Assembly (NCBI GenBank): GCA_003229095.1
Contig: QIHS01000091.1
Span: 1-25,847 of the forward strand
Source of the DNA: Woeseia sp.
Lineage (GTDB): Bacteria; Pseudomonadota; Gammaproteobacteria; Steroidobacterales; Woeseiaceae
DNA: 25,847 nucleotides
Reading direction: 5' to 3'
Below are positions 2,240 through 25,847 of the stretch, piece after piece. Positions within the stretch are counted from its first letter, which is position 1; every line of letters begins with the position of its first letter. The position numbers and the translations under genes were made by a program. The notes under the pieces are model-generated. The model saw only the letters and a list, made by a program, of their open reading frames with translations, made no database searches and had not been told where the DNA came from.

Positions 2240-2275
2240 AAACGGGCTCTGACCCGGTTATTTTTGGGGTTAGAG
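2238..2275. terminator. Hairpin / short repeat element at a convergent gene junction (possible bidirectional terminator)
   Basis: CTCTGACCC (2247-2255) pairs with GGGTTAGAG (2267-2275) with one G-U pair. It is preceded by an A tract and has a T tract in the loop. It sits between the ldh and sulfatase stop codons. Confidence 0.5.
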
Positions 2276-3880
2276 GTCTCTGGGAACCACTATGCCGAGA
2301 TTCCTGCGTTCGACTCGCCACAGGTCGATCAATTCTGCTCGTTTATCGGGGTCTTCCAACGACAGGTCGTTGGCCTCACCGGGGTCGGCGACGATGTTAT
2401 ACAACTCGAAATTGTTTTCGTCGAATGGTCCTTCGGTGGTAACGATTTTCCAGCGACCCTGCCGGAGGTAACTTCGTCCGCGATGTGACAGAACAGTTAC
2501 ATACTCATCGTCGTGAACCGTGTCTGACTGGCCGCCGAGAAAATCGAGCATGCTCTCGCCAATCATGGGTTGCACAGATCCGTCACTCGGGTACACCGCG
2601 CCGGCAACTTCCAGAAAGGTCGGTGCCAGGTCCATGACCGTCAGGTAGCCAGTGTCGATTGTGCCATCCGCCGTGACGCCTTTACCAGCAACGATCATCG
2701 GTGCAACAATGCCGCCCTCGTGTGTATAACCCTTGTGCTTCTGGAACGGTGCGGAACCGGCTTCCGCCCACTGCGGGCCGTAAGATACGAATGTGTCAGC
2801 CGTGCCCATCAGATCGTAGCTGCTGTTGTCGAAAGTTGCCTGCAGGTATTCAGCAAACTGATCGTATCCGACGCCATTGTAGAAGTCTTCAGCAGCGGCA
2901 CCGTTGTCGCCCATGAATACGATGAGTGTGTTGTCGTAGAGATCGTTTTCTTTAAGGTAGTCGATCAGGCGACCGATATGGTCGTCCAGGTTATCGACCA
3001 TTGCCGCGTACAGTTCCATTTTTCTCGATTCACGCTTTTGCTCCTCCGCATTCAGTTCATCCCATGGCGTAATCTTTTCGTTGCGCGGTGGAAGCTCGGA
3101 CGACAACGGGATAATGCCGGCCTCTTTCAGAGATTCGAAACGGCGCTCACGGAGAGCATCGTATCCGTCGTCGTATCGCCCCGAATACAAATACAGGTAT
3201 TCGTCCGGAACCTGCAATGGCCAGTGTGGGGAAGTATATGCGGCAAACGCAAAAAATGGTTTACCGTTGTCTCTGTCCCGCTCGATGAACTGAATGAGTT
3301 TATCGGTGTAAAAATCGGTTGAGTAACGACCTGTCGGATAGTCAACCAAAGTTGATCCGCCCTCAAAAAATCCGCGGTCGTCGAAATGGGTGCCGGCACC
3401 GTCTAGCAGGTTGTAAGCGCGGCTGAATCCGGCGGCATGCGGACTGGTTTCGAGTTCGAGGCCCAGATGCCATTTGCCGACCGTATAGGTGTCATAGCCG
3501 GCATCCAGCAATAATCGTGGAAAAGGAACGATTCGATCAGACAGACTGTTTTCATAGCCATCCAGCGGTACGCCAGCAACACCCTCAACGCCCTGAGATG
3601 CCATACCCGCGACATGGTTGTTGTTGCCACTTAGCAGCATCGCGCGTGTCGGCGCACACACTGGAGCAGTATGAAATTGAGTAAACAGCACGCCTTGTGC
3701 AGCCAGCGCATCGATGTTGGGTGTGTCGATGTCACTGCCGTAAACGCCGAGGTCTGCATATCCGAGGTCGTCGGCAACGATCAGGAGAATATTTGGTCGT
3801 TCTGTCGCAGCGGCCGATATGTTACAAATGCCCAGTATGCTTGTGGCGGTCGCCAACAATACACTTGATCGTAAATTCAT
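2270..3880 (-). CDS. Secreted arylsulfatase (AtsA-like, Cys-type S1 sulfatase)
   Basis: Sec-like signal peptide. Motifs NILLIVADDLG, CAPTR (CxPxR signature), GKWHLG, PHWPLQ, GDNG, HKGYTHEGG, YNIVADPGE. GGAG SD about 10 nt upstream. Confidence 0.92.
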   Translation of the reverse strand: MNLRSSVLLATATSILGICNISAAATERPNILLIVADDLGYADLGVYGSDIDTPNIDALAAQGVLFTQFHTAPVCAPTRAMLLSGNNNHVAGMASQGVEGVAGVPLDGYENSLSDRIVPFPRLLLDAGYDTYTVGKWHLGLELETSPHAAGFSRAYNLLDGAGTHFDDRGFFEGGSTLVDYPTGRYSTDFYTDKLIQFIERDRDNGKPFFAFAAYTSPHWPLQVPDEYLYLYSGRYDDGYDALRERRFESLKEAGIIPLSSELPPRNEKITPWDELNAEEQKRESRKMELYAAMVDNLDDHIGRLIDYLKENDLYDNTLIVFMGDNGAAAEDFYNGVGYDQFAEYLQATFDNSSYDLMGTADTFVSYGPQWAEAGSAPFQKHKGYTHEGGIVAPMIVAGKGVTADGTIDTGYLTVMDLAPTFLEVAGAVYPSDGSVQPMIGESMLDFLGGQSDTVHDDEYVTVLSHRGRSYLRQGRWKIVTTEGPFDENNFELYNIVADPGEANDLSLEDPDKRAELIDLWRVERRNLGIVVPRDL

Positions 3881-15766: not shown

Positions 15767-17122
15767 TTGCTTCGAGCCCGACAAAAACTCGGTAAATACC
15801 GCATCCTCGGCCGCATTGCATCCGGACCGTTGGCAGATGTCTACACCGCGGCAGACACTATTCACAAAACCCGTGTAGCACTCAAGATTCCGAAGTCCGA
15901 CGACAACATCAGCAACGATGATTTTCTTCGCGAAGTGCGCATTGCTACCAGGCTGAATCACGAGAATATTCTCCCGGTCCAGGACGCCAGTTTCATCGAT
16001 GGCAGGTTTGTCATTGCGATGGAATTGGGCACTGAGTCACTTGCTGATCGAATCGTGCACCGCATGTCGAGCGTGCACACGATGGAAATCGCAGACCAGG
16101 CCCTGGCGGCGCTTGCGCATGCGCATGAAAAGAAAATCATTCACTGCGATATCAAACCAGAAAACTTTATCCTGTTTCCTGGTAATCGCCTGAAACTTGC
16201 CGATTTTGGTTTTGCAAAAATCAGCCTGCGGACGCTAAAGGCGTCAGGCTCAGGAACGATCGATTACATCGCACCTGAACAGGCGATGGGGCGGCCGAAA
16301 TTTCAGTCCGATGTTTTTTCCCTCGGCCTGGTCCTGTATCGCCTGTTCGCTGGAAAGTTACCGGAATGGCCGTTCAAATGGCCCATGGTCGGCCATGATC
16401 GCCTGCGCAAACGGTTTCCGCCAGAGATTGCAGACATGCTCAGGAAGTCGATTCAACTGGACCCCGCCGATCGCTATCGAAATGCCATCGAAATGTATGC
16501 GGAATTTCGAAAGATTAGTCGCCGGTCTGCGCGGCAAAGCGACAAAGGGAATAATGGCAAGAAAGGCAAAGGGAAGATCGGCAAAGGGAAGATCGGTAAA
16601 GGGAAAGTCGGCAAGGGACGAAACGGCAATTCGGCTGCAAATGGTGCGGGCTGGCGCAAAATGCAGTGGCGTGAGTTTCAGCGCCAGTATCGCGGTGAGC
16701 TGGAGACGGGTCACTCGTGCAGGCGCTGCGAGGGTCCCGTGGCTGAGAGTATGCAGTGCTGTCCCTGGTGTGGCGTCGATCATCCGTCGCGGCAGGCGGA
16801 CACACGCATGCCGGCGATTTGTCCGCGCTGCGAGCGTGGTGTGAAAACGGATTGGCACTACTGCGCGTGGTGTTACGGTTCCGGCTTTGAGGTTGAGACC
16901 AAACGCCGTTACAGCGACAAACGCTATAGCCGCAAGTGTACAAATCATCGTTGCAGGCAGCCACTAATGCCGTTCATGCGCTACTGTCCGTGGTGTCATT
17001 CCAAGGTCAGGAAAGCCTGGAAGATTGCCGAAAGCAAACACAAATGCCGGTCTTGTGATTGGGGTATCGCCAGGGAATTCTGGAACTACTGCGCCTGGTG
17101 TAGTGATCCGGTCGAGCGATGA
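15767..17122 (+). CDS. Hanks-type Ser/Thr protein kinase with Lys/Gly-rich linker and four C-terminal zinc ribbons
   Basis: Motifs VALK, REVRI, HCDIKPEN, LADFG, GTIDYIAPEQ, SDVFSLG. The C-terminus has CRRC/CPWC, CPRC/CAWC, CTNHRC/CPWC, CRSC/CAWC. TTG start. No TM segment seen. Confidence 0.88.
   Translation: MLRARQKLGKYRILGRIASGPLADVYTAADTIHKTRVALKIPKSDDNISNDDFLREVRIATRLNHENILPVQDASFIDGRFVIAMELGTESLADRIVHRMSSVHTMEIADQALAALAHAHEKKIIHCDIKPENFILFPGNRLKLADFGFAKISLRTLKASGSGTIDYIAPEQAMGRPKFQSDVFSLGLVLYRLFAGKLPEWPFKWPMVGHDRLRKRFPPEIADMLRKSIQLDPADRYRNAIEMYAEFRKISRRSARQSDKGNNGKKGKGKIGKGKIGKGKVGKGRNGNSAANGAGWRKMQWREFQRQYRGELETGHSCRRCEGPVAESMQCCPWCGVDHPSRQADTRMPAICPRCERGVKTDWHYCAWCYGSGFEVETKRRYSDKRYSRKCTNHRCRQPLMPFMRYCPWCHSKVRKAWKIAESKHKCRSCDWGIAREFWNYCAWCSDPVER
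16565..16618 (+). repeat. 15-nt in-frame tandem repeat (GGCAAAGGGAAGATC, about 3.6 copies) encoding GKGKI
   Basis: Units start at 16565, 16580, 16595 and 16610 (partial). Confidence 0.85.
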
Positions 17123-17949
17123 CAAGAGACATCATATTGCTGGATGGCGCGACACAGCCTGATCAACTCGACAGGCAAATTGGCGGCGGCTCGCTAATCG
17201 CATTCACTGCGCCCGCGCCGAATAAAACGACGGACAACGAAGACAGCGTTGCCGCTATCCCGTATGGAGCAGATGCTGTTGTGTTGGCAATTGCGGACGG
17301 TGCCGGTGGCCTGCCCGCCGGTCGGCGTGCGTCGCGAACAGCGATCCGATCTTTACAAGTGTCACTTCACAACGCAATCGACGACTCCACACTCTTGCGG
17401 ACCGCGATTTTAAATGGCATCGACGCGGCTAACGAAGCAGTACTCGAAATCGGCAACGGTGCGGCAACGACGCTGACGGTCGTCGCAATCGAGGGTCATA
17501 TTGCCAGGAGTTATCAAATCGGCGATTCGGAAGCCATGTTCGTGGGCCAGCGCGGCCGGATTCGGGCGCAGACGATGGCACACTCGCCGACCGGTTTCGC
17601 GGTTGAGGCGGGTTTTCTCAATCAACGTGAGGCACTGCATCACGAAGAACGCCACCTGGTCTCGAATTTTATCGGTACCAGCGATATGCGTGTCGATATG
17701 GGTGCCGAAATGAAACTGAATCCCAGGGATACCGTACTGCTTGCAAGCGACGGCTTGATGGACAATGTGCACCTGCATGAAATTACTGAATTGGTCAGGA
17801 AGGGCACATTGGCGGCCGCTGTTTCCTCGCTTACAAACCTTGCCGCGAGGAGAATGACAGTCGAAACGCTGCACCAGCCAAGCAAGCCGGATGACCTGTC
17901 GCTGATCCTGTATCGAAAGCCTTATCGAGCGTCGCAATACGATAAGTAA
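17119..17949 (+). CDS. PP2C / PPM family Ser/Thr protein phosphatase
   Basis: Motifs NEDS, AIADGAGG, ATTLT, IGDS, QTMAHS, LLASDGL, DDLS. ATGA overlap with the kinase. Confidence 0.88.
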   Translation: MTRDIILLDGATQPDQLDRQIGGGSLIAFTAPAPNKTTDNEDSVAAIPYGADAVVLAIADGAGGLPAGRRASRTAIRSLQVSLHNAIDDSTLLRTAILNGIDAANEAVLEIGNGAATTLTVVAIEGHIARSYQIGDSEAMFVGQRGRIRAQTMAHSPTGFAVEAGFLNQREALHHEERHLVSNFIGTSDMRVDMGAEMKLNPRDTVLLASDGLMDNVHLHEITELVRKGTLAAAVSSLTNLAARRMTVETLHQPSKPDDLSLILYRKPYRASQYDK

Positions 17950-18038
17950 CAATCCCAATTAAAACAGCAATTTAGTACGGTTATGTAAATCATCCCTGCG
18001 GCACTCAACACGGGCACCGGATTGACAGTTACTGCTGG

Positions 18039-18067
18039 TTGCGACCGCGCCCCGGGGGTATTATGGT
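18039..18067 (+). promoter_or_regulatory. Candidate sigma70 promoter (TTGCGA-17-TATGGT) for the downstream lipoprotein cluster
   Basis: -35 at 18039-18044 and -10 at 18062-18067, within a 300-nt intergenic region. Confidence 0.4.
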
Positions 18068-18249
18068 CTCTGTTAGCCTGATCGTGAGCCATCAGGATTT
18101 TCGTTGGCCAAGTCCGATGGAACTTAACGATCACAATGGTTATCCAAACGGATATAGAGCGGCTGCGCCGGGAGACGCAAGTAGATTCTGCCAGATTCTG
18201 CAGGTCGCTCGACTGGGCATTCGACTACACAATTTGAGGCGGCAAGGCG

Positions 18250-19329
18250 ATGAACTCAATCAGCCAAGAGAAATTTACTCCATCTATTGCACGCAATAGT
18301 GTTCTGTTAACCGCAGCTGCATTGTTGTTAAGTGGCTGCGCCGTTAGTTTTTCGACCAACGGACCGGGTGGTGTTGGTGGTAGCGGGGGCGGCGGTATCG
18401 ATCTGCCGGGCGGCATACCCGGCGGTTCATCTGGCGGTGGTTCGCCTGGCGGTTCATCGGGAGGCGGTTTGCCTGGCGGTTCATCGGGCGGCGGTTCGCC
18501 TGGCGGTTCATCGGGCGGCGGTTCGCCTGGCGGTTCATCGGGCGGCGGTTTGCCTGGTGGTTCATCGGGTGGCGGTTTGCCTGGTGGTTCATCGGGCGGC
18601 GGTTCGCCTGGCGGTTCATCGGGTGGCGGTTCTCCTGGCGGTTCATCAGGTGGCGGTTCGCCTGGCGGGGGCTCGTCCGGTGGCGGTTCTGGTGGCGCTG
18701 GTGGAGCGGGCGGCGGTGGCGCAGGTGGCGGCGGACAGGTTCGTGGTGTTGGCGGTTCCGTGCCAGGTGCCGGCGGTGCAGGCGGTGGCCTGGGTGGCGA
18801 CGTGACGGCTGAGAACTGTGACTCGGGTGGTACTGGCGGCTGGGGCGGTGCGGATGAGGGTTGTGATGGCAGCGTAGGCCAGTATCCCGGCGAAAGTAGC
18901 GCCGAGCGAAAAGCGCGGCTTGAGAAAAGTCTTGACGAATCCGTTGACGGTTTCGACGAAGTGCTTGGCGAAGAACAACGTGAAATTTCTACTGTTGGCC
19001 GTAACACCGAAGGATTCGGCGGGTCGGGCAGCGGCGGAGCCGGTACAGGCAGAGTCGGACTGGGATCACAAGCTGGCAGTGGCGGCAGTGGCAGCGGCGG
19101 TAGCGGTGGTTCGTCAGGATCAGTTGCCGGTCCACCCGAAGAAAAAGATGCGTCGATCAGCGGCATGAGTGAAGCCGAAATTACTGAGCGTACGCCGGAG
19201 GACATCCCCGACCTTGTCAGTGAGGACATCGTGGCGAGGCAATTGCGCGAAGCGGCGCTCTCAGAAGATGATCCCGCCATCAGGGAGAAACTCTGGGAAG
19301 AATATCGAAATTACAACGACCTGAACTAG
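18250..19329 (+). CDS. Gly/Ser-rich repeat lipoprotein with charged helical C-terminal domain, function unknown
   Basis: Lipobox LSGC (Cys30), ten xPGGSSGGG units, and C-terminal EDIP..EDIVARQLREAA..EDDPAIREKLWEEY. Confidence 0.8.
   Translation: MNSISQEKFTPSIARNSVLLTAAALLLSGCAVSFSTNGPGGVGGSGGGGIDLPGGIPGGSSGGGSPGGSSGGGLPGGSSGGGSPGGSSGGGSPGGSSGGGLPGGSSGGGLPGGSSGGGSPGGSSGGGSPGGSSGGGSPGGGSSGGGSGGAGGAGGGGAGGGGQVRGVGGSVPGAGGAGGGLGGDVTAENCDSGGTGGWGGADEGCDGSVGQYPGESSAERKARLEKSLDESVDGFDEVLGEEQREISTVGRNTEGFGGSGSGGAGTGRVGLGSQAGSGGSGSGGSGGSSGSVAGPPEEKDASISGMSEAEITERTPEDIPDLVSEDIVARQLREAALSEDDPAIREKLWEEYRNYNDLN
18415..18687 (+). repeat. 27-nt coding tandem repeat, 10 units, encoding (I/S/L)PGGSSGGG
   Basis: Nine 27-nt units (18415-18657) plus one 30-nt variant. 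Consensus is about TCGCCTGGCGGTTCATCGGGCGGCGGT. Confidence 0.92.
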
Positions 19330-19381
19330 CGGCGTGTTGAAAACAGACCTACAAAGGCAGAGAACGATCGATAGTCTATTA

Positions 19382-20626
19382 ATGAGAAACAAGCTGAAAT
19401 TTATTGTTGCCTTACTGGGTTGCGCTGTGATGGCGTCAGGATGCACCGTCACCGAAGTCATCCACGCGGAAACGACTCACCTGGATGTGGCCTCTCTGCA
19501 AGTCTCAGAAAGCCTGTTGCTCGATATTGGCATTCTGAATTTCGACGCCGGCGTTCCGGAAAATAACAACGTTGAAAAAACGCGAATTTACCCGGAAGTT
19601 CGCAAAGCAGAAGCTCGTTATCTGCCTTATCACATCAAGACAACACTGCAGGGCACAGGTTTTTGGGGTGCCGTGAGAGTGATACCCACGCGCGTTGTCT
19701 CCACCGATGTGTTGGTGAGCGGCGTGATCAAACAGTCCGATGGCGAGATGGTGACGTTGCTCCTGCGTGCTGACGATGCGACAGGACGCCACTGGTTTGA
19801 AAAGTCTTACAGCATGCAAACCGGGCTGTCGTCCTATGCAGACTATCGGGACCGGACGCAGGATCCCTACCAAAAAGTATTCAACGATTTTGCCAACGAT
19901 TTGCACGCCTTTGTCCTGACAATTCCCCGGCAGGACATCTTAAGAATTCGCCAGGTGTCTGAACTCAAGTTCTTTGCGGATATGGCACCGACTGCGTTCG
20001 GCGAACATTTGACGACCAGCAACGAGGGGCTGGTGTCCGCGCAGCGATTGCCGGCGGAAAACGACCCTATGGTTGACAGACTGCGCCAGATTCGAGAGCG
20101 AGATCGGCTGGTTGTGGACACGCTCAATGAGCACTACGCAAACTTCTATTACGGCATTGCTTTGCCTTATGAAGGCTGGCGAAAACGGACTCGGGAGCAA
20201 TCTGTCGTTTACAGGCAAAGTCGCCAGTCGGCAATCCAGCGGGCGCTGATCGGTGCGGCAGTTGTGGTAGCGTCCGCTAACTACGAGCCATCAGGAAACA
20301 GCCTCTATGATGCCGATCGAATTGCGAGGTCGGTCGCCATTAGCAGAGGCTGGAATGCCGTCGTGAGTTCATTGCGCCAATATCGCAGCGCGGGCGTTCA
20401 CCGCGAAGAGATCAAAGAGCTGTCAGAGTCGTTTGTTGCCGAAGCGGCACCGATGGTTGTTCAGGTGCAGGGTGAGACCTTGCGTTTGACAGGTACAGCG
20501 GAAGCGCAATACGAAAGCTGGCGCAAGTTGCTCAAGGAAATTCACGAAACCGAAACCGGCTTCACCGAAGCGATTCAGGTCGGTGACCCAGCCAGGTCGG
20601 CTCAGCTACCACCGCCCTCCGGCTAG
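19382..20626 (+). CDS. Putative lipoprotein, function unknown
   Basis: From ATG 19382 the sequence reads MRNKLKFIVALLGCAVMASGC, a signal peptide II-like leader. It is a long ORF colinear with its neighbours. The ORF-track GTG at 19334 is an alternative start. Confidence 0.72.
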   Translation: MRNKLKFIVALLGCAVMASGCTVTEVIHAETTHLDVASLQVSESLLLDIGILNFDAGVPENNNVEKTRIYPEVRKAEARYLPYHIKTTLQGTGFWGAVRVIPTRVVSTDVLVSGVIKQSDGEMVTLLLRADDATGRHWFEKSYSMQTGLSSYADYRDRTQDPYQKVFNDFANDLHAFVLTIPRQDILRIRQVSELKFFADMAPTAFGEHLTTSNEGLVSAQRLPAENDPMVDRLRQIRERDRLVVDTLNEHYANFYYGIALPYEGWRKRTREQSVVYRQSRQSAIQRALIGAAVVVASANYEPSGNSLYDADRIARSVAISRGWNAVVSSLRQYRSAGVHREEIKELSESFVAEAAPMVVQVQGETLRLTGTAEAQYESWRKLLKEIHETETGFTEAIQVGDPARSAQLPPPSG

Positions 20627-20628
20627 CG

Positions 20629-23025
20629 TTGGCATCGACCGAAAAACGGATGCAGATGCTCAATGAAGGTATACGCCTCGCGGGCCGATATACCCTGATT
20701 CGGCGCCTGGGAACGGGCGGAATGGCGGAAGTCTGGCTTGCAGACGATCGTCATAGTGGCACTCGTGTTGCGCTTAAGTTTGCCGCCGGCAATGACGACG
20801 AGGATGGCAAGCAAAACACCTTGTTAAACAGAGAATGGCGCATCGGCAGTCGCCTGATGCACGCGAATATTGTGCGCGTTTTTGAATTCCACGACGACCC
20901 GGATGGTGCTTACTATAGTCTGCAGCATGTTGGTGCGACTGACCTGGGCGTTCTTGCAGGCGCAGATCCGGCTGAGGCATTACGACCAGTCGCTATGATT
21001 GCCGACGCGCTGCGTTATGCCCATGGCAAAGGCATCGTGCATCGGGATATCAAGGCATCCAATATCCTGCTGGACAGTCGTGGACACCCCTACATTGTGG
21101 ACTTCGGCGTCGCATGCGCACCGGGCATCGATGCGATAACTGGCGGTGGTTCTGCAGCTGCCAGCAGCCCGCAGCAACAGGCTGGAACGCCTGCGGACAC
21201 CTCGGACGACATCTATGCCCTGGGTGTTCTCATTCACGAACTGCTGACTGGCATGCCACCCGGTGTTGCGATGCCTGACAACATTTCGCTGCCCATTGAA
21301 ATCAAGGAATTAGTCGCGGACATGCTGGCAGAAAATGCTGGCGACAGGCCCAATGCAGAAGCAGTTGCTCAACGCCTGCAGGCGGCCGGAATTTCGCCGG
21401 GTCCGGCGCCCGTGCGTTACATTGCCGGCGTTGGTGAGGTCGATGAGGTTATTGAATCGAAGCAGGCTGCGCCAGCTGTGTCGCAAAGAATTGCGGCGTC
21501 CTCAACACGCACTGCTGCGCCGATCGATGCCAGTGGTATTTCTCCGCAGATGTTGTATGGCGGTCTTGCAACCGCATTGGTTTTGCTCCTCGTGGTCATT
21601 TTTGTATTGCCTCGAATGCCCGAAAACACAGCCGCGTCGGTTGTCGATATCGTTGAACAGCCGGCAACCTCGTCGGTCGTCAAACCCGGACCTGAGTCAG
21701 ATGACGAAAATCAGTCCGCGGAGCTGCCGCCAGGGGCACCGGCCGGCGATCCGGCTTCTTTCAACGAGAATATCGGTGATCGCGCCGTCAACGAATCGGC
21801 CCGAATCAAGGCGGCGACAGACAGCGCGCTCGGGGATTTATTATCACAGTTACAACGATTGCGTTTCCGCGCCATCGATCGCTGGGGAGGCCAGGATTAC
21901 CTTGACGCCGTCGATCTGTATGCGGCTGGCGATCAGGCCTATGTGGGTCGCAACTATCCGCTTGCCGGCGACCGCTATCGAGAGGCGATTGACCGCCTTG
22001 AGCCATTCTTCGATCGGATCGATGAAGTATTCAGGGAAACCCTGGCGGCGGCAAAAGATGCCTTCGATTCCGGCGACCACATCGAATCAATTCACCTGTT
22101 CGATCTCGCTGTCTCCATTACGCCAGGTAACCGCGAGGCTGAGAATGGGCTCGCGCGGGCGAAAAATCTTCAGGTGGTTCTCGAACTGATGGAACAGGGT
22201 ATGCAGTTCGAAGCAGATCTCGAGCATGCTGCCGCGCAACGAGCATTCGAAAAAGCGCTCGACATCGACAGCCAGTGGGAGTCCGCATCGGTCGCGCTGG
22301 CGCGCATTAATGCAGCCATCAAACAGCTGTCATTCGAGCAGCGCATGACTGAGGGTTTTGCGGCACTGTCGAGTGCAGATTTTGCCAGTGCGCGCGCCGC
22401 ATTCAATGCGGCCAAAGCGCTTGGCCCTGGCTCGCGACAACCGGCAGATGGATTGCTTCAGGTTGACCAGGAAGCCAGGCTATACGATATCCGCCGGCTT
22501 GAAAAAGAGGCGCTGGCACTCGATTCAAACGAGCAATGGGAATCTGCGGTATTCATTTATGAGGACTTATTGAAGATTGACCCTGACCTGCAATTTGCCC
22601 AACAAGGATTGGCGATGGCGCGATCGCGTTCCGCGTTGCATGCGCGTCTTGCGGGTTTGGTCGGCAGCCCGGACTTACTCAATGACCCTGTCACTATGCG
22701 CGACTCGACCTCGCTGCTTTTGAGCGTAACGCGAATGGAACCAATGGGACCGCGTCTGGAAGATCAAAAAAGTTCGCTTGCACGTCTGTTGAAGCGGGCG
22801 GCGACACCTTTATCGGTGCACCTGGTATCCGATAATCTGACCAATGTGACCATATTCAAAGTCGGACAGTTTGGCACTTTTGCCTCTCAGGAACTGAGTC
22901 TGCGTCCCGGCGTCTATATTGCTGTGGGAAACCGCTCCGGTTACCGTGATGTGCGAGTCGAATTTCGCGTGGCGCCTGAAGTCGATATGGAGCCCATTGT
23001 GATTCAGTGTGAGGAACAGATTTGA
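20629..23025 (+). CDS. Transmembrane Ser/Thr protein kinase with periplasmic TPR-like helical domain and C-terminal beta module
   Basis: Motifs LGTGGMAEVW, VALK, HANIV, HRDIKASN, DFG, DIYALG. TM segment MLYGGLATALVLLLVVIFVLP at about aa 308-328. Start is uncertain (TTG 20629, ATG 20650 or ATG 20656). Confidence 0.85.
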   Translation: MASTEKRMQMLNEGIRLAGRYTLIRRLGTGGMAEVWLADDRHSGTRVALKFAAGNDDEDGKQNTLLNREWRIGSRLMHANIVRVFEFHDDPDGAYYSLQHVGATDLGVLAGADPAEALRPVAMIADALRYAHGKGIVHRDIKASNILLDSRGHPYIVDFGVACAPGIDAITGGGSAAASSPQQQAGTPADTSDDIYALGVLIHELLTGMPPGVAMPDNISLPIEIKELVADMLAENAGDRPNAEAVAQRLQAAGISPGPAPVRYIAGVGEVDEVIESKQAAPAVSQRIAASSTRTAAPIDASGISPQMLYGGLATALVLLLVVIFVLPRMPENTAASVVDIVEQPATSSVVKPGPESDDENQSAELPPGAPAGDPASFNENIGDRAVNESARIKAATDSALGDLLSQLQRLRFRAIDRWGGQDYLDAVDLYAAGDQAYVGRNYPLAGDRYREAIDRLEPFFDRIDEVFRETLAAAKDAFDSGDHIESIHLFDLAVSITPGNREAENGLARAKNLQVVLELMEQGMQFEADLEHAAAQRAFEKALDIDSQWESASVALARINAAIKQLSFEQRMTEGFAALSSADFASARAAFNAAKALGPGSRQPADGLLQVDQEARLYDIRRLEKEALALDSNEQWESAVFIYEDLLKIDPDLQFAQQGLAMARSRSALHARLAGLVGSPDLLNDPVTMRDSTSLLLSVTRMEPMGPRLEDQKSSLARLLKRAATPLSVHLVSDNLTNVTIFKVGQFGTFASQELSLRPGVYIAVGNRSGYRDVRVEFRVAPEVDMEPIVIQCEEQI

Positions 23026-25448
23026 AATTTAGCGCAATCATTATCAGAGATAGCGGCGGTGAGCGTCGTCTGGAATCGACCCGCCTGCCATTACGTCTTG
23101 GTACCGGGGCCGATTGTGATATTCGCCTGCCGGGACCGGGAAGCGGTGCCGTTGCACTGCTCGACGATCTGGACGGCGAGCCTTTTGTACAGCCGGTCGG
23201 TGCGGCGGGCGTCCTCAAAATCAATAGTGAAATTTTAACCGCATCCAGAAAGCTGGAAGCCGGAGACGAGCTGGAGTTTTTCGGCACGCGCATCGTTGTC
23301 GGTGAGACAGAGGATGCGATGTCACTTGATGTTCGCCTGGAAGCCAGCGTTTATGTGACAAAGCCGCCAGAACTCGCGGATGCCTCTACATTGTCGGCAG
23401 AAGAGACGATTGTCGCGACTGCGTTTCGCCGCGCCACGGATGCAACGGCAGTTGACGTCGAGCCAACAGGTAGTCGGTGGCAGGCTTTCGTCGGTGTCGC
23501 GGTTACCATCCTTGTTCTGATCTCGTGGCTGCTATTCACCTCGAAGTCGATTCAATTCGACGTGCAGCCAGGTGGTGCCGATGAAGTATCGGTCACCGGC
23601 GGCTGGTTTCAATTGCCGATCGGCGAGCGAATTTTGCTGCGAGAGGGAGACTATACGGTCAACGTTGTAAAAGAAGGATATTACGACGCTGCACAAAGCC
23701 TGAATGTAGACGATGCGCCAAGCAAGACGGTCATCATCCAGATGCGAAAATTGCCCGGACAGCTTACCGTCATGACAGATCCGGCAGTCGAAGCTTTTGT
23801 TGCCGTCGACGACACGCGCCTCGGACAAGCGCCTTTTGGTCCGATTGAGCTGGAACCCGGCACGCATTCAGTCACGGTGACTGCAGATAGATTCTTGCCA
23901 TTTTCCCAGCGCTTGTCAGTTCCGGGATTGGGATTGCACCAGCAACTGAACGTGCAGTTGGTGCCGTTATGGGCGAATGTTGACATCAATTCGGAACCAC
24001 AGGGGGCTGCTGTCTACCAGGGGACAACGAAGGTCGGCGAAACGCCGCTGCGCCTCGAGTTGATGGAAGGCTCGCACCCTCTGAGTTTAATCAAGCCAGG
24101 TTTTAAGGCTTGGGACGGAAGCGTGGACACGCTTGCCAATGTAGGACAAACCCTGCCGACTATTCAGTTGGAACCTGCGAACGCTCAGCTTCGAGTAGCT
24201 TCGATTCCGCGCGGTGCCAACGTGACCGTAAACGGCCGTTATCGTGGACAATCTCCGGTGACGGTTGCCTTGTCGCCCGACGTTAACTACGAAATCGGCC
24301 TGTCGAAAGCCGGTTATGGGTCTGCAAGTCAGCGCATTCGGCTGGCCGCTGCGGCGTTCGAGGAGATCACCGTTGACCTGACCGCCCGGGTGGGCGAAGT
24401 CACCGTGGCTGTTCTTCCCGAAGATGCCACCGTGTATGTCGACGGACAGGCTCGCGGCAGTGGTACCGTCACCATGCGTCTGTCTTCAGCACCGCACCAG
24501 CTGGAAGTTAGAAAAAGCGGCTTTGCAACCTTCGTTCGCAGTGTGACACCGCGTCCGGGTTATCCGCAGATCATTCAGGTGCGGCTGCTCTCCGATGCGG
24601 AGGTGCTGGCTCGAAGCACCGCTAACTCGATCACGACATCGCAGGGCCAGGAATTGAAACGGATCGAGCCAGGCGGTTTCACGATGGGCACATCGCGGCG
24701 CGAGCAGGGCAGGCGCGCGAACGAGGTATTGCGACCGGTGATCCTGACCAAACCCTTTTTCTTGTCGACTAAAGAAGTGAGCAATCGCGAGTTTGGCCGA
24801 TTTCGTTCTGGTCACAATTCCGGTGGCGAATTGCATGTATCGCTGGCAGGCGATTTGAACCCCGTGGTCAACGTTAGCTGGGAAGACGCAATCGACTACT
24901 GCGTGTGGCTTAGCGTGCAGGAAGGGCTGACGCCGGCTTACAAGAAAGTATTCCAGAAATGGCAACCCGTGTTGCCGACACCGGACGGTTATCGATTGCC
25001 GACTGAAGCGGAGTGGGTATGGGCCATTCGCTACCAGGGACGCAATACCGCAGCGAGTTTTCCGTGGGGTGGGCGCATGCCGCCGCAGCGTGATAGCGGT
25101 AATTATGCCGGCAAGTCCGCAATAGGCCTGGTGCGTTCGATCCTGCCGGGTTGGGATGACGGCTATGCGTCTACTGCACCCGTGGGCAGTTTCGCGCCAA
25201 ATGCGCTGGGTATTTTTGATGGCGGTGGCAACGTTGCCGAATGGGTTCAGGATTATTACTCCGTCGCAACGCCGGGCCAGGCTGAGCCGGCGAACGATCC
25301 ACTGGGGCCGACCACGGGTTCCAACCGGGTCATTCGTGGCTCCAGCTGGATGCATTCAGGCATCCTGGAGCTGCGTCTGGGTTATCGCAACTTTGGCAAT
25401 AGCGGTTACGCCGATGTTGGCTTCCGTATCGCAAGAAATGTAGAGTAA
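23022..25448 (+). CDS. FHA-like / TM / 5x PEGA / FGE-sulfatase (SUMF1-fold) domain protein
   Basis: N-terminal beta domain with LPLRLG..DCDIRL and LEAGDELEFFGTRI, and a TM at about aa 155-172. Five PEGA-like repeats (e.g. INSEPQGAAVY..GETPL, SIPRGANVTVNGRYRGQSP). The FGE fold shows GGFTMG, PVVNVSWEDA, YRLPTEAEW, GNVAEW, RVIRGSSW, GFRIAR. TTGA overlap with the kinase and a GAGGA SD. Confidence 0.87.
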   Translation: MKFSAIIIRDSGGERRLESTRLPLRLGTGADCDIRLPGPGSGAVALLDDLDGEPFVQPVGAAGVLKINSEILTASRKLEAGDELEFFGTRIVVGETEDAMSLDVRLEASVYVTKPPELADASTLSAEETIVATAFRRATDATAVDVEPTGSRWQAFVGVAVTILVLISWLLFTSKSIQFDVQPGGADEVSVTGGWFQLPIGERILLREGDYTVNVVKEGYYDAAQSLNVDDAPSKTVIIQMRKLPGQLTVMTDPAVEAFVAVDDTRLGQAPFGPIELEPGTHSVTVTADRFLPFSQRLSVPGLGLHQQLNVQLVPLWANVDINSEPQGAAVYQGTTKVGETPLRLELMEGSHPLSLIKPGFKAWDGSVDTLANVGQTLPTIQLEPANAQLRVASIPRGANVTVNGRYRGQSPVTVALSPDVNYEIGLSKAGYGSASQRIRLAAAAFEEITVDLTARVGEVTVAVLPEDATVYVDGQARGSGTVTMRLSSAPHQLEVRKSGFATFVRSVTPRPGYPQIIQVRLLSDAEVLARSTANSITTSQGQELKRIEPGGFTMGTSRREQGRRANEVLRPVILTKPFFLSTKEVSNREFGRFRSGHNSGGELHVSLAGDLNPVVNVSWEDAIDYCVWLSVQEGLTPAYKKVFQKWQPVLPTPDGYRLPTEAEWVWAIRYQGRNTAASFPWGGRMPPQRDSGNYAGKSAIGLVRSILPGWDDGYASTAPVGSFAPNALGIFDGGGNVAEWVQDYYSVATPGQAEPANDPLGPTTGSNRVIRGSSWMHSGILELRLGYRNFGNSGYADVGFRIARNVE

Positions 25449-25511
25449 ATATTACGGACCTTTGTGCGTTAATGAGGTCCAACTAACAGTTGCCTGTTCA
25501 TAGAGAAGAGT

Positions 25512-25787
25512 ATGCGCGAATATTCAAGAGTTCTGTTTTTGCTGCTTTTGCTGGCAGTGCCGGCCTCGTCACAGGAAGAAGATGCGGATGCTGCTGCAGA
25601 CGATGCGGTGGATACGGTCGAAGCAACGGGGTCAACCGATGTGGCTGAGGTGCTCGAGGTTGTCGAGGAGGAAGAAATTGATGACAGTGACCTCGATATT
25701 CAAACTTATGAAGAGGATGAGGACGATTTTGTGCCAACCGAAGAAATTCCGGCCGGTGAACCGATTCCGCTGCCATCAAATATCTGA
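25512..25787 (+). CDS. Small acidic secreted protein with C-terminal FVPTEEIP..PIPLPSNI motif
   Basis: Sec-like signal MREYSRVLFLLLLLAVPASS. The mature part of about 71 aa has 28 D/E and no K/R/H. A purine-rich AGAGAAGAG precedes the ATG. Confidence 0.72.
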   Translation: MREYSRVLFLLLLLAVPASSQEEDADAAADDAVDTVEATGSTDVAEVLEVVEEEEIDDSDLDIQTYEEDEDDFVPTEEIPAGEPIPLPSNI

Positions 25788-25847
25788 AACACAGAATATC
25801 TGACAATCAAGCTGCCTGAGTGACCTCGCCCGGGCAGGCGGAGAAAA

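Follow-up and report, generated by a model that had tools for sequence, protein, structure and literature searches.

The gene array and its continuation past the contig end

The window analysed here is the whole of contig C1 (QIHS01000091.1; 25,847 nucleotides, nt) of a Woeseia sp. metagenome-assembled genome (MAG; 565 contigs, 72% complete). Towards its end lie five genes for two lipoproteins (LpG and Lp2), a membrane-bound Hanks-type kinase (K2), a protein that joins an FHA fold to PEGA repeats and a formylglycine-generating enzyme (FGE) fold (FPF), and a small acidic secreted protein (Table 1). The original prediction, made from the sequence of the window, had described them as an uncharacterised envelope-spanning phospho-signalling cluster. 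Its account of the layout was borne out: all five open reading frames (ORFs) are on the + strand, that of FPF occupying 23022-25448, with 52 nt between LpG and Lp2 if the latter begins at the ATG at 19382 and not at 19334, 2 nt ahead of the TTG at 20629, a 4-nt overlap of K2 and FPF (ATTTGA, 23022-23025) and 63 nt ahead of the acidic gene. The start at 19382 is likely, homologues beginning at the same place, and the TTG start of the fourth gene, FPF, is backed by homologues with a Met in the same alignment column. As had also been proposed, each product carries an export signal or membrane segment (lipoboxes in LpG and Lp2, single segments in K2 and FPF, secretion of the acidic protein), and neither lipoprotein has an Asp at position +2.

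Two upstream genes that the original prediction left out, for the kinase K1 and a PP2C-type phosphatase, belong to the same conserved array. K1 matches the Pfam families Pkinase (1.1e-34) and DZR (1.1e-5), and the phosphatase also matches the Stp1/IreP model (2.4e-30, under the cut-off of the model); neither protein has a hydrophobic segment.

Table 1. Positions of the array genes, and of notable features within them, in the window
Feature	Position	Strand	Comment
K1	15767..17122	+	Soluble Ser/Thr kinase of the Hanks type, C-terminal zinc ribbons; opens the Woeseiaceae array
PP2C	17119..17949	+	PP2C-type Ser/Thr phosphatase; overlaps K1 by 4 nt; Pfam PP2C_2 1.9e-14
LpG	18250..19329	+	Lipoprotein (Cys30), long Gly/Ser tether, small helical C-terminal domain
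Tandem repeat in LpG	18420..18697	+	27-nt unit, 9-10 copies; encodes PGGSSGGG(S/L) units of the tether
Lp2	19382..20626	+	Lipoprotein; alpha/beta domain, long helical hairpin and small beta unit
K2	20629..23025	+	Cytoplasmic Hanks kinase, membrane segment and periplasmic TPR-rich domain
FPF, FHA-fold domain	23022..23336	+	Cytoplasmic, residues 1-105; degenerate at canonical phosphothreonine-binding positions
FPF, YVTKPP linker motif	23352..23369	+	Thr113, between FHA fold and membrane segment
FPF, remainder	23478..25448	+	Membrane segment, PEGA repeats, C-terminal FGE-sulfatase-fold domain
Acidic protein	25512..25787	+	Small, secreted, polyacidic; strongly conserved C-terminal tail
Intergenic tail	25788..25847	+	Ends in GGAGAAAA at the contig end; MotA/TolQ-like gene cut by the assembly

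The original prediction saw no genes of a type VI secretion system (T6SS) or of any other machine. No T6SS family is indeed present among the ORFs of the window, or among the downstream genes of relatives; that no other machine genes are visible is because the contig ends at an assembly break. The operon continues, as had been suspected: contig C172 of the same MAG (3851 nt) carries, on one strand, a MotA/TolQ-like gene, a gene for an Hsp70-like protein with an FHA domain (xFHA), vWA1 and the start of vWA2. C172 opens at residue 72 of the MotA/TolQ-like protein (residues 72-266 are encoded), and a Logan contig reaches about 600 nt beyond the end of the window, position 25847. The MotA/TolQ/ExbB and vWA neighbours that the prediction had named were thus correct, and they are also found downstream in the loci of relatives.

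Both vWA proteins have an N-terminal helix with the motif SFLD..C.GFGA and an invariant Asp, which on C172 reads SFLDCMSCGFGA in vWA1 and SFLDCICCGFGA in vWA2. In vWA1 (365 residues), Asp17 is invariant among 22 diverse sequences, as are Asp173, Ser175, Ser177 and Asp292 of the metal ion-dependent adhesion site (MIDAS), with Thr268 nearly so; the Asp motif also occurs in vWA2 homologues. Pfam, run on every downstream ORF of one relative (locus L019), gave no ExbD/TolR family. xFHA (455 residues) has a canonical C-terminal FHA domain (Pfam, 1.5e-12), and over its first 370 residues shows a weak resemblance to Hsp70/actin-fold ATPases (PDB profile matches with E-values of 0.012-0.7); its Protein Atlas clusters carry the names FHA and Hsp70. 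Last in the array is an OmpA-family protein; it has a signal peptide and a coiled-coil, and no Asp helix.

A core of this kind has been predicted in silico (PMC12204202; Mol Biol Evol 2025), as a second family of membrane-tethered vWA proteins that co-occurs tightly with tolQ homologues. Those proteins form heterologous pairs, are not accompanied by tolR/exbD partners and contain a trans-pore helix (TPH) with a conserved aspartate; their main hosts are Proteobacteria, the seed was from Idiomarina and the authors left the function unassigned (PMC12204202). C172 and the loci of all relatives likewise carry a tolQ/motA-like gene beside two different tethered vWA genes, with a conserved Asp in each N-terminal helix and no tolR/exbD gene in the cluster. 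This adjacency of channel gene and vWA pair lies outside the window, on C172, and is also seen in 53/53 Woeseiaceae loci and in most distant loci. The published description covers the three-gene core only, without kinase or PEGA; its mentions of lipoproteins concern Tol-Pal, and its sole word prefixed 'FHA', FhaC-TolB-like, is unrelated (PMC12204202). The motor core is thus already known as a prediction, and it is the scaffold and regulatory half in the window, its partners, that is undescribed in the literature found: our searches returned no paper on the proteins of the window or on the larger cluster, and a Ferrigenium preprint had no bearing on it.

Conservation of the cluster

The 80 closest public loci, which form the synteny set, are all from Woeseiaceae and therefore not independent. 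Among them, Lp2, K2, FPF, MotA, xFHA, vWA1 and vWA2 follow each other in this order in 53/53 loci with at least 9.8 kb of downstream sequence, and, of the 44 loci with at least 7 kb upstream, 41 have K1 and PP2C ahead of these genes on the same strand; in 34 of these 41, the space ahead of Lp2 fits LpG only. Lp2 is present in 39/41 genomes of the genus, family and taxonomic order of the source organism (hereafter the window's order). In an evenly drawn class sample of 300 gammaproteobacterial genomes, which includes the window's own genome and the unpublished G077, 23 have Lp2, each of them together with vWA1, and vWA1 occurs in 26 altogether. Assembly permitting, the two genes share a contig at a distance of under 9 kb, with one exception at 26 kb. 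Of all the components, Lp2 marks the system most specifically. The motor occurs in roughly 7-8% of the gammaproteobacterial genera sampled, and almost all genomes of the abundant marine-sediment order to which Woeseia belongs have it.

The comparison was extended to 18 loci from other families, 13 at first and then five more. The order LpG, Lp2, TPR protein, PEGA-FGE protein, MotA, vWA1, vWA2 is kept in 11 of the first 13, all from other gammaproteobacterial families, and in three of the further five, two of these three belonging to a family of a different class. Of the two order-breaking loci in the first set, L110 places MotA behind vWA2, and in L109 the motor genes lie elsewhere on the contig. 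LpG stands ahead of Lp2 in most loci. With homologues of all five genes conserved in the same order across many genomes, the cluster is more than a chance arrangement, and the neighbourhood comparison bears out the original claim of a genuine, co-occurring, envelope-spanning cluster.

The phospho-signalling part of that claim did not survive as the defining feature. K2 orthologues outside the window's order match only positions ~300-788 of the K2 hidden Markov model, starting at the membrane segment, and the kinase domain is absent from them in 19/19 loci examined. FPF orthologues there mostly begin just ahead of the membrane segment, 17/19 being without the FHA part; the exceptions are those of L102 and L109. 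Because orthologues outside the order have no kinase and mostly no FHA part, the kinase/FHA layer is a lineage-specific overlay, partly present also in some other lineages, and not part of the core; what is conserved is the motor together with its periplasmic and outer-membrane scaffold.

These observations bear on the possibility, in line with the original prediction, that the kinase and FHA proteins and the lipoproteins form a stand-alone envelope phospho-signalling sensor, which would relay a periplasmic cue to cytoplasmic targets and next to which the motor genes merely happen to be located. K2 does combine an intact kinase and a large TPR domain in the periplasm, the translationally coupled gene encodes an FHA fold, and PP2C and a second kinase are adjacent. 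Against this, the kinase-less and mostly FHA-less orthologues mostly still adjoin TolQ-like and vWA genes, each sampled genome with Lp2 has vWA1, and the FHA fold of FPF lacks the residues for phosphothreonine binding, making a stand-alone sensor quite improbable.

A Zorya-like anti-phage or conflict system, in which a MotAB-like motor senses envelope perturbation, would also fit a MotA-like channel with an unusual partner. PADLOC gave generic matches to defence-kinase (Hanks-type) models and a weak OmpA-like/ZorB match (2.4e-5), and is silent on Lp2, FPF, the MotA-like protein, vWA1 and vWA2; the defence reading was rejected on this ground. There is no nuclease or other effector, and presence in 39/41 genomes of the order with stable synteny resembles that of core-genome genes, so that we consider a Zorya-type role extremely improbable. 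The vWA-MoxR conflict systems (PMC7159879) were rejected because no MoxR is present here.

Variants of the cluster differ in their accessory genes. A minimal seven-gene form has neither the Hsp70-like/FHA gene nor the acidic gene. Genome G202 has two copies, on contigs C1 and C2 (L112 and L113), one of this minimal type and one of a complex type with an acidic protein and an Hsp70-like gene. In the genome of L109 (G282:C6:130000-149999 and G282:C6:117863-119531), the block of LpG, Lp2, TPR protein and FPF is ~26 kb from vWA1/vWA2, and the FPF orthologue is longer, with 921 residues and a full N-terminal region.

Folds and motifs of the scaffold proteins

Lp2 has the lipobox ASGC with Cys37 followed by Thr, and matches no Pfam or NCBIfam family; a Protein Atlas search returned unnamed lipoprotein clusters only. 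Its AlphaFold2 model has a predicted local distance difference test score (pLDDT) of 83 and contains an alpha/beta domain at residues 55-200. VIA-align gave Z values of 10.0-9.0 to a chain of 8z5n ('LPHT ring'), PelC, DUF330, CT253, 6lqh ('curli complex', presumably CsgG) and TolB, several of which are solved outer-membrane or periplasmic lipoproteins. Foldseek gave matches to LptE and TolB, the N-terminal domain of TolB reaching a probability of 1.00; VIA-align scored this domain at Z 9.0 and 7.8. The model thus points to a lipoprotein fold of the PelC/TolB-N/CsgG/LptE type in Lp2, an assignment new here. PelC and CsgG form rings.

This fold raises the question of Tol-Pal. With it, the cluster shares a TolQ-like channel of the 5:2 type, a periplasmic TPR domain, an OmpA-family peptidoglycan-binding protein and a TolB-N-like lipoprotein; it differs in having no TolA or TolB propeller and in that vWA heads replace the periplasmic domain of TolR. 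A canonical TolB gene (TolB_N) is located on contig C183 of the same genome, and elsewhere in relatives, for which reason the cluster was rejected as the Tol-Pal system itself, Lp2 sharing the TolB-N-like fold only. A second, Tol-Pal-like system for outer-membrane tethering or constriction would be a specific version of the explanation that we prefer below: the TolQ-like channel and the vWA proteins would take the part of TolQRA, Lp2 that of TolB, the TPR protein that of CpoB and the OmpA-like protein that of Pal, to stabilise or remodel the link between outer membrane and peptidoglycan. The match of the Lp2 N-domain to TolB, found by both structural searches, the channel, the terminal OmpA-family protein and the periplasmic TPR of K2 are in line with such roles. 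The canonical TolB elsewhere, the absence of a beta-propeller from Lp2, whose fold is common to PelC, CsgG and LptE, the absence of the OmpA-like gene from minimal variants and the lack of a TolA-like protein make this version rather unlikely.

In FPF, the FHA-like N-terminus that had been proposed is confirmed as a fold by modelling and structural search, though Pfam is silent on it even at E<=5. Residues 1-105 are modelled with a pLDDT of about 90; Foldseek, at probability 1.00, aligned them with over 50 FHA domains of solved structure (best E-value 4.4e-5; target-normalised TM-scores 0.6-0.75), and hhalign with the canonical FHA domain of xFHA, encoded downstream (70%, E-value 4e-5). At the positions of the canonical GR Arg and the Ser and His of SxxH (SRRH in xFHA), the FPF family has GT and PGPG(S/G)xA(V). 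An FHA fold in FPF without the canonical residues is new here; canonical binding of phosphothreonine by it is improbable, and the canonical domain of xFHA is the more likely reader. In the linker that follows, the YVTxPP motif has Thr113, Pro115 and Pro116 nearly invariant. Of the full-length FPF homologues, 69 of 75 contain TxPP, and of the short, kinase-less ones, two of 17 do: this threonine follows the presence of the kinase, an observation also new here, and makes Thr113 a candidate phospho-acceptor.

The remainder of FPF has a single membrane segment (residues 153-177), at least four PEGA repeats (Pfam, 1.8e-46 in four stretches) and an FGE-sulfatase domain at residues 547-805 (Pfam, 3.5e-38), so that the proposed PEGA/FGE domains, like the kinase domain, stand. 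FGE/SUMF1 enzymes have a catalytic cysteine pair after an RGGS-type motif. The pair is not present in the FGE domain of FPF, where the C-terminal region reads RGSSWMHSGILELRLGYRN, and Cys627 is the only cysteine beyond residue 32; an identity as formylglycine-generating enzyme was ruled out, since the domain holds a single cysteine. The best NCBIfam match is the GldK/PorK model TIGR03525 (8.3e-27).

GldK and PorK likewise have an FGE-sulfatase fold without catalytic cysteines and form a periplasmic structural module beside a motor driven by the proton-motive force. In the type IX secretion system (T9SS), the GldLM 5:2 motor drives a periplasmic ring with FGE-fold GldK/PorK under outer-membrane lipoproteins. 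A T9SS-like apparatus for secretion or surface motility could thus account for the FGE match and for the joint occurrence of PEGA Ig-like repeats and outer-membrane lipoproteins with a motor core of the 5:2 type. The GldK score of 94.5 bits is far under the cut-off of 350, though, and FPF is anchored in the membrane, with PEGA repeats and no lipobox. No gene for an outer-membrane translocon, PorN, PorV or SprA-like protein, nor any other T9SS gene, was found in the Pfam-scanned loci, and we regard a T9SS-like function as very improbable.

K2 consists of a kinase domain (residues 21-270), a membrane segment (306-332) and a periplasmic TPR-rich part (about 340-798), with Pfam matches to Pkinase (5.9e-31) and TPR_2. 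The motifs GTGGMAEV (at residue 28), VALK (47), HRDIKASN (138) and DFG (158) are intact; a canonical APE is not present. The VALK-type motif, the HRD catalytic loop and DFG are all kept in 61 of 75 full-length homologues, and the kinase is predicted to be catalytically intact. When the periplasmic part was compared with the PDB by phmmer, only designed TPR proteins were matched. In genome G032, of the same order, the kinase (259 residues) and the membrane segment with TPR (508 residues) of the K2 orthologue are separate ORFs overlapping by 4 nt (L016:6129-8431), either a natural split gene or a frameshift; it may be a snapshot of kinase-TPR fusion or fission.

LpG has the lipobox LSGC with Cys30 followed by Ala, and no Pfam family matches it, its C-terminal region included. 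Tandem Repeats Finder describes the tether-encoding repeat with a period of 27, 9.2 copies, 92% matches and a score of 405. The C-terminal motif, DD-IVARQLREAA...DP.LRE.LW.EYR.YK, is conserved in loci across the class, kinase-less ones included. The acidic protein has 28 Asp/Glu and no basic residue among its 71 mature residues; Pfam gave nothing useful, and the tail DDDFVPTEEIPA.EPIP.PSNI is almost invariant among 66 homologues.

A predicted envelope-spanning machine and its genomic setting

Proton-driven 5:2 motors (Mot, Tol, Ton, GldLM and Zorya) each drive a different envelope process. The reading that we prefer, with a probability of about 0.7, is that the five genes and the upstream K1 and PP2C are the scaffold and regulatory half of a predicted operon of about 12 genes for an envelope-spanning machine driven by the proton-motive force. 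It is built on gene content, synteny, domain folds and the conservation of motifs, which the analysis shows. The TolQ/MotA-like channel, as a pentamer, would pair with a vWA1/vWA2 dimer, and proton flow would be converted into movement of the vWA heads. The N-terminal vWA helices would supply the TolR/ExbD-type aspartate, and coiled-coil stalks would hold the MIDAS-containing heads in the periplasm. As judged from topology and folds, the PEGA-FGE and TPR proteins may form a static frame, anchored in the inner membrane and reaching outward, while Lp2 and the Gly-tethered LpG would hang from the outer membrane. The invariant tail of the acidic protein is a candidate ligand of the vWA heads, via MIDAS, or of the TPR domain.

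In the window's order, the TPR protein would have gained a cytoplasmic Hanks kinase, and the PEGA-FGE protein a degenerate FHA fold and the YVTxPP threonine. K2, and perhaps K1, may phosphorylate juxtamembrane threonines such as Thr113; the canonical FHA domain of the Hsp70-like protein would bind them once phosphorylated and PP2C would reverse the mark. Such a phospho-switch would gate assembly or activity of the motor. For the output of the machine, envelope tethering, export and adhesion are candidates; this output, like the physical contacts and the direction of signalling, is what we infer from the arrangement. A more detailed version would have the TolQ-like channel turn vWA1/vWA2, so that the heads cyclically catch the acidic tail or a partner of the Lp2 assembly within a PEGA/FGE-TPR cage, phospho-switched in Woeseiales via the FHA reader of the Hsp70-like protein; it is unlikely to be right in all these details.

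The regulatory layer is reminiscent of the PpkA-Fha1-PppA module of T6SS and the mycobacterial PknB-FhaA-PstP module, to which the original prediction had compared it: in these too, a membrane Hanks kinase with an extracytoplasmic sensor, FHA and PP2C are found beside a membrane machine. The analogy holds for the regulatory logic and goes no further. Here kinase and structural TPR subunit are a single fused protein, one FHA fold is degenerate, neither T6SS nor divisome genes are present, and the module is missing from most orthologous clusters.

Several points weigh against the preferred reading of a motor-driven machine. The motor genes lie outside the window, and their connection to it rests on MAG binning and on synteny in relatives. 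The distance of ~26 kb between scaffold block and motor genes in L109 breaks the expected adjacency, and the genome of L122 is without Lp2. Pairing of kinase and FHA is not strict, L102 and L121 having FHA domains with no fused or adjacent kinase. The FHA fold of FPF, one of the proposed readers, may not read phosphate, because the canonical phosphothreonine-binding residues are missing. The Z values of Lp2, at 9-10, are moderately above a typical best background of 7-8. Lastly, literature searches found no experimental work on any component.

The window adds a parts list to the motor: two outer-membrane lipoproteins, a TPR protein, a PEGA/FGE protein and an acidic ligand candidate, to which the lineage of the window adds a kinase/FHA/PP2C switch with a concrete candidate phospho-site. 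This list makes a purely predicted motor a system that can be tested, with mutants, a phospho-site and candidate ligands of the vWA heads.

Within the array, PP2C and LpG are neighbours in the window, as they are in most Woeseiaceae loci. The spacer between them (17950-18249, 300 nt) is gene-free and has neither an Rfam match nor a convincing promoter; an internal promoter that sets K1 and PP2C apart from the structural genes could lie in it. In G007, G006 and G019, the closest relatives (L014:16493-19783 and L022-L024), an insertion of ~3.2 kb lies at this place, which in G007 (L014) holds two genes on the opposite strand. Scans of the window for promoters (4 versus 5.2 in shuffled sequence) and terminators (13 versus 10.9) showed no excess and leave the transcription units undefined, as there are no more sites than in shuffled sequence; an Rfam search of the window returned no RNA family.

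The other genes of the window are housekeeping in nature: a his operon, a sulfatase, an acyl-CoA synthetase and a sugar kinase. The sulfatase gene (2270-3880, - strand; Pfam Sulfatase, 7e-60) is ~19 kb upstream of the FGE-fold protein; a maturation link between the two is unlikely, because FPF does not have the catalytic cysteines.

DNA of the window was found in metagenome runs from hydrothermal vents, all of them DNA runs, and the Logan contigs that cover it are short, strain-mixed unitigs. Unitigs from two runs (X1 and X2) align to positions 23000-25847 with 95-99% identity and differ at many transition sites, mostly synonymous in appearance; closely related strains of the source organism appear to coexist in the vent samples.

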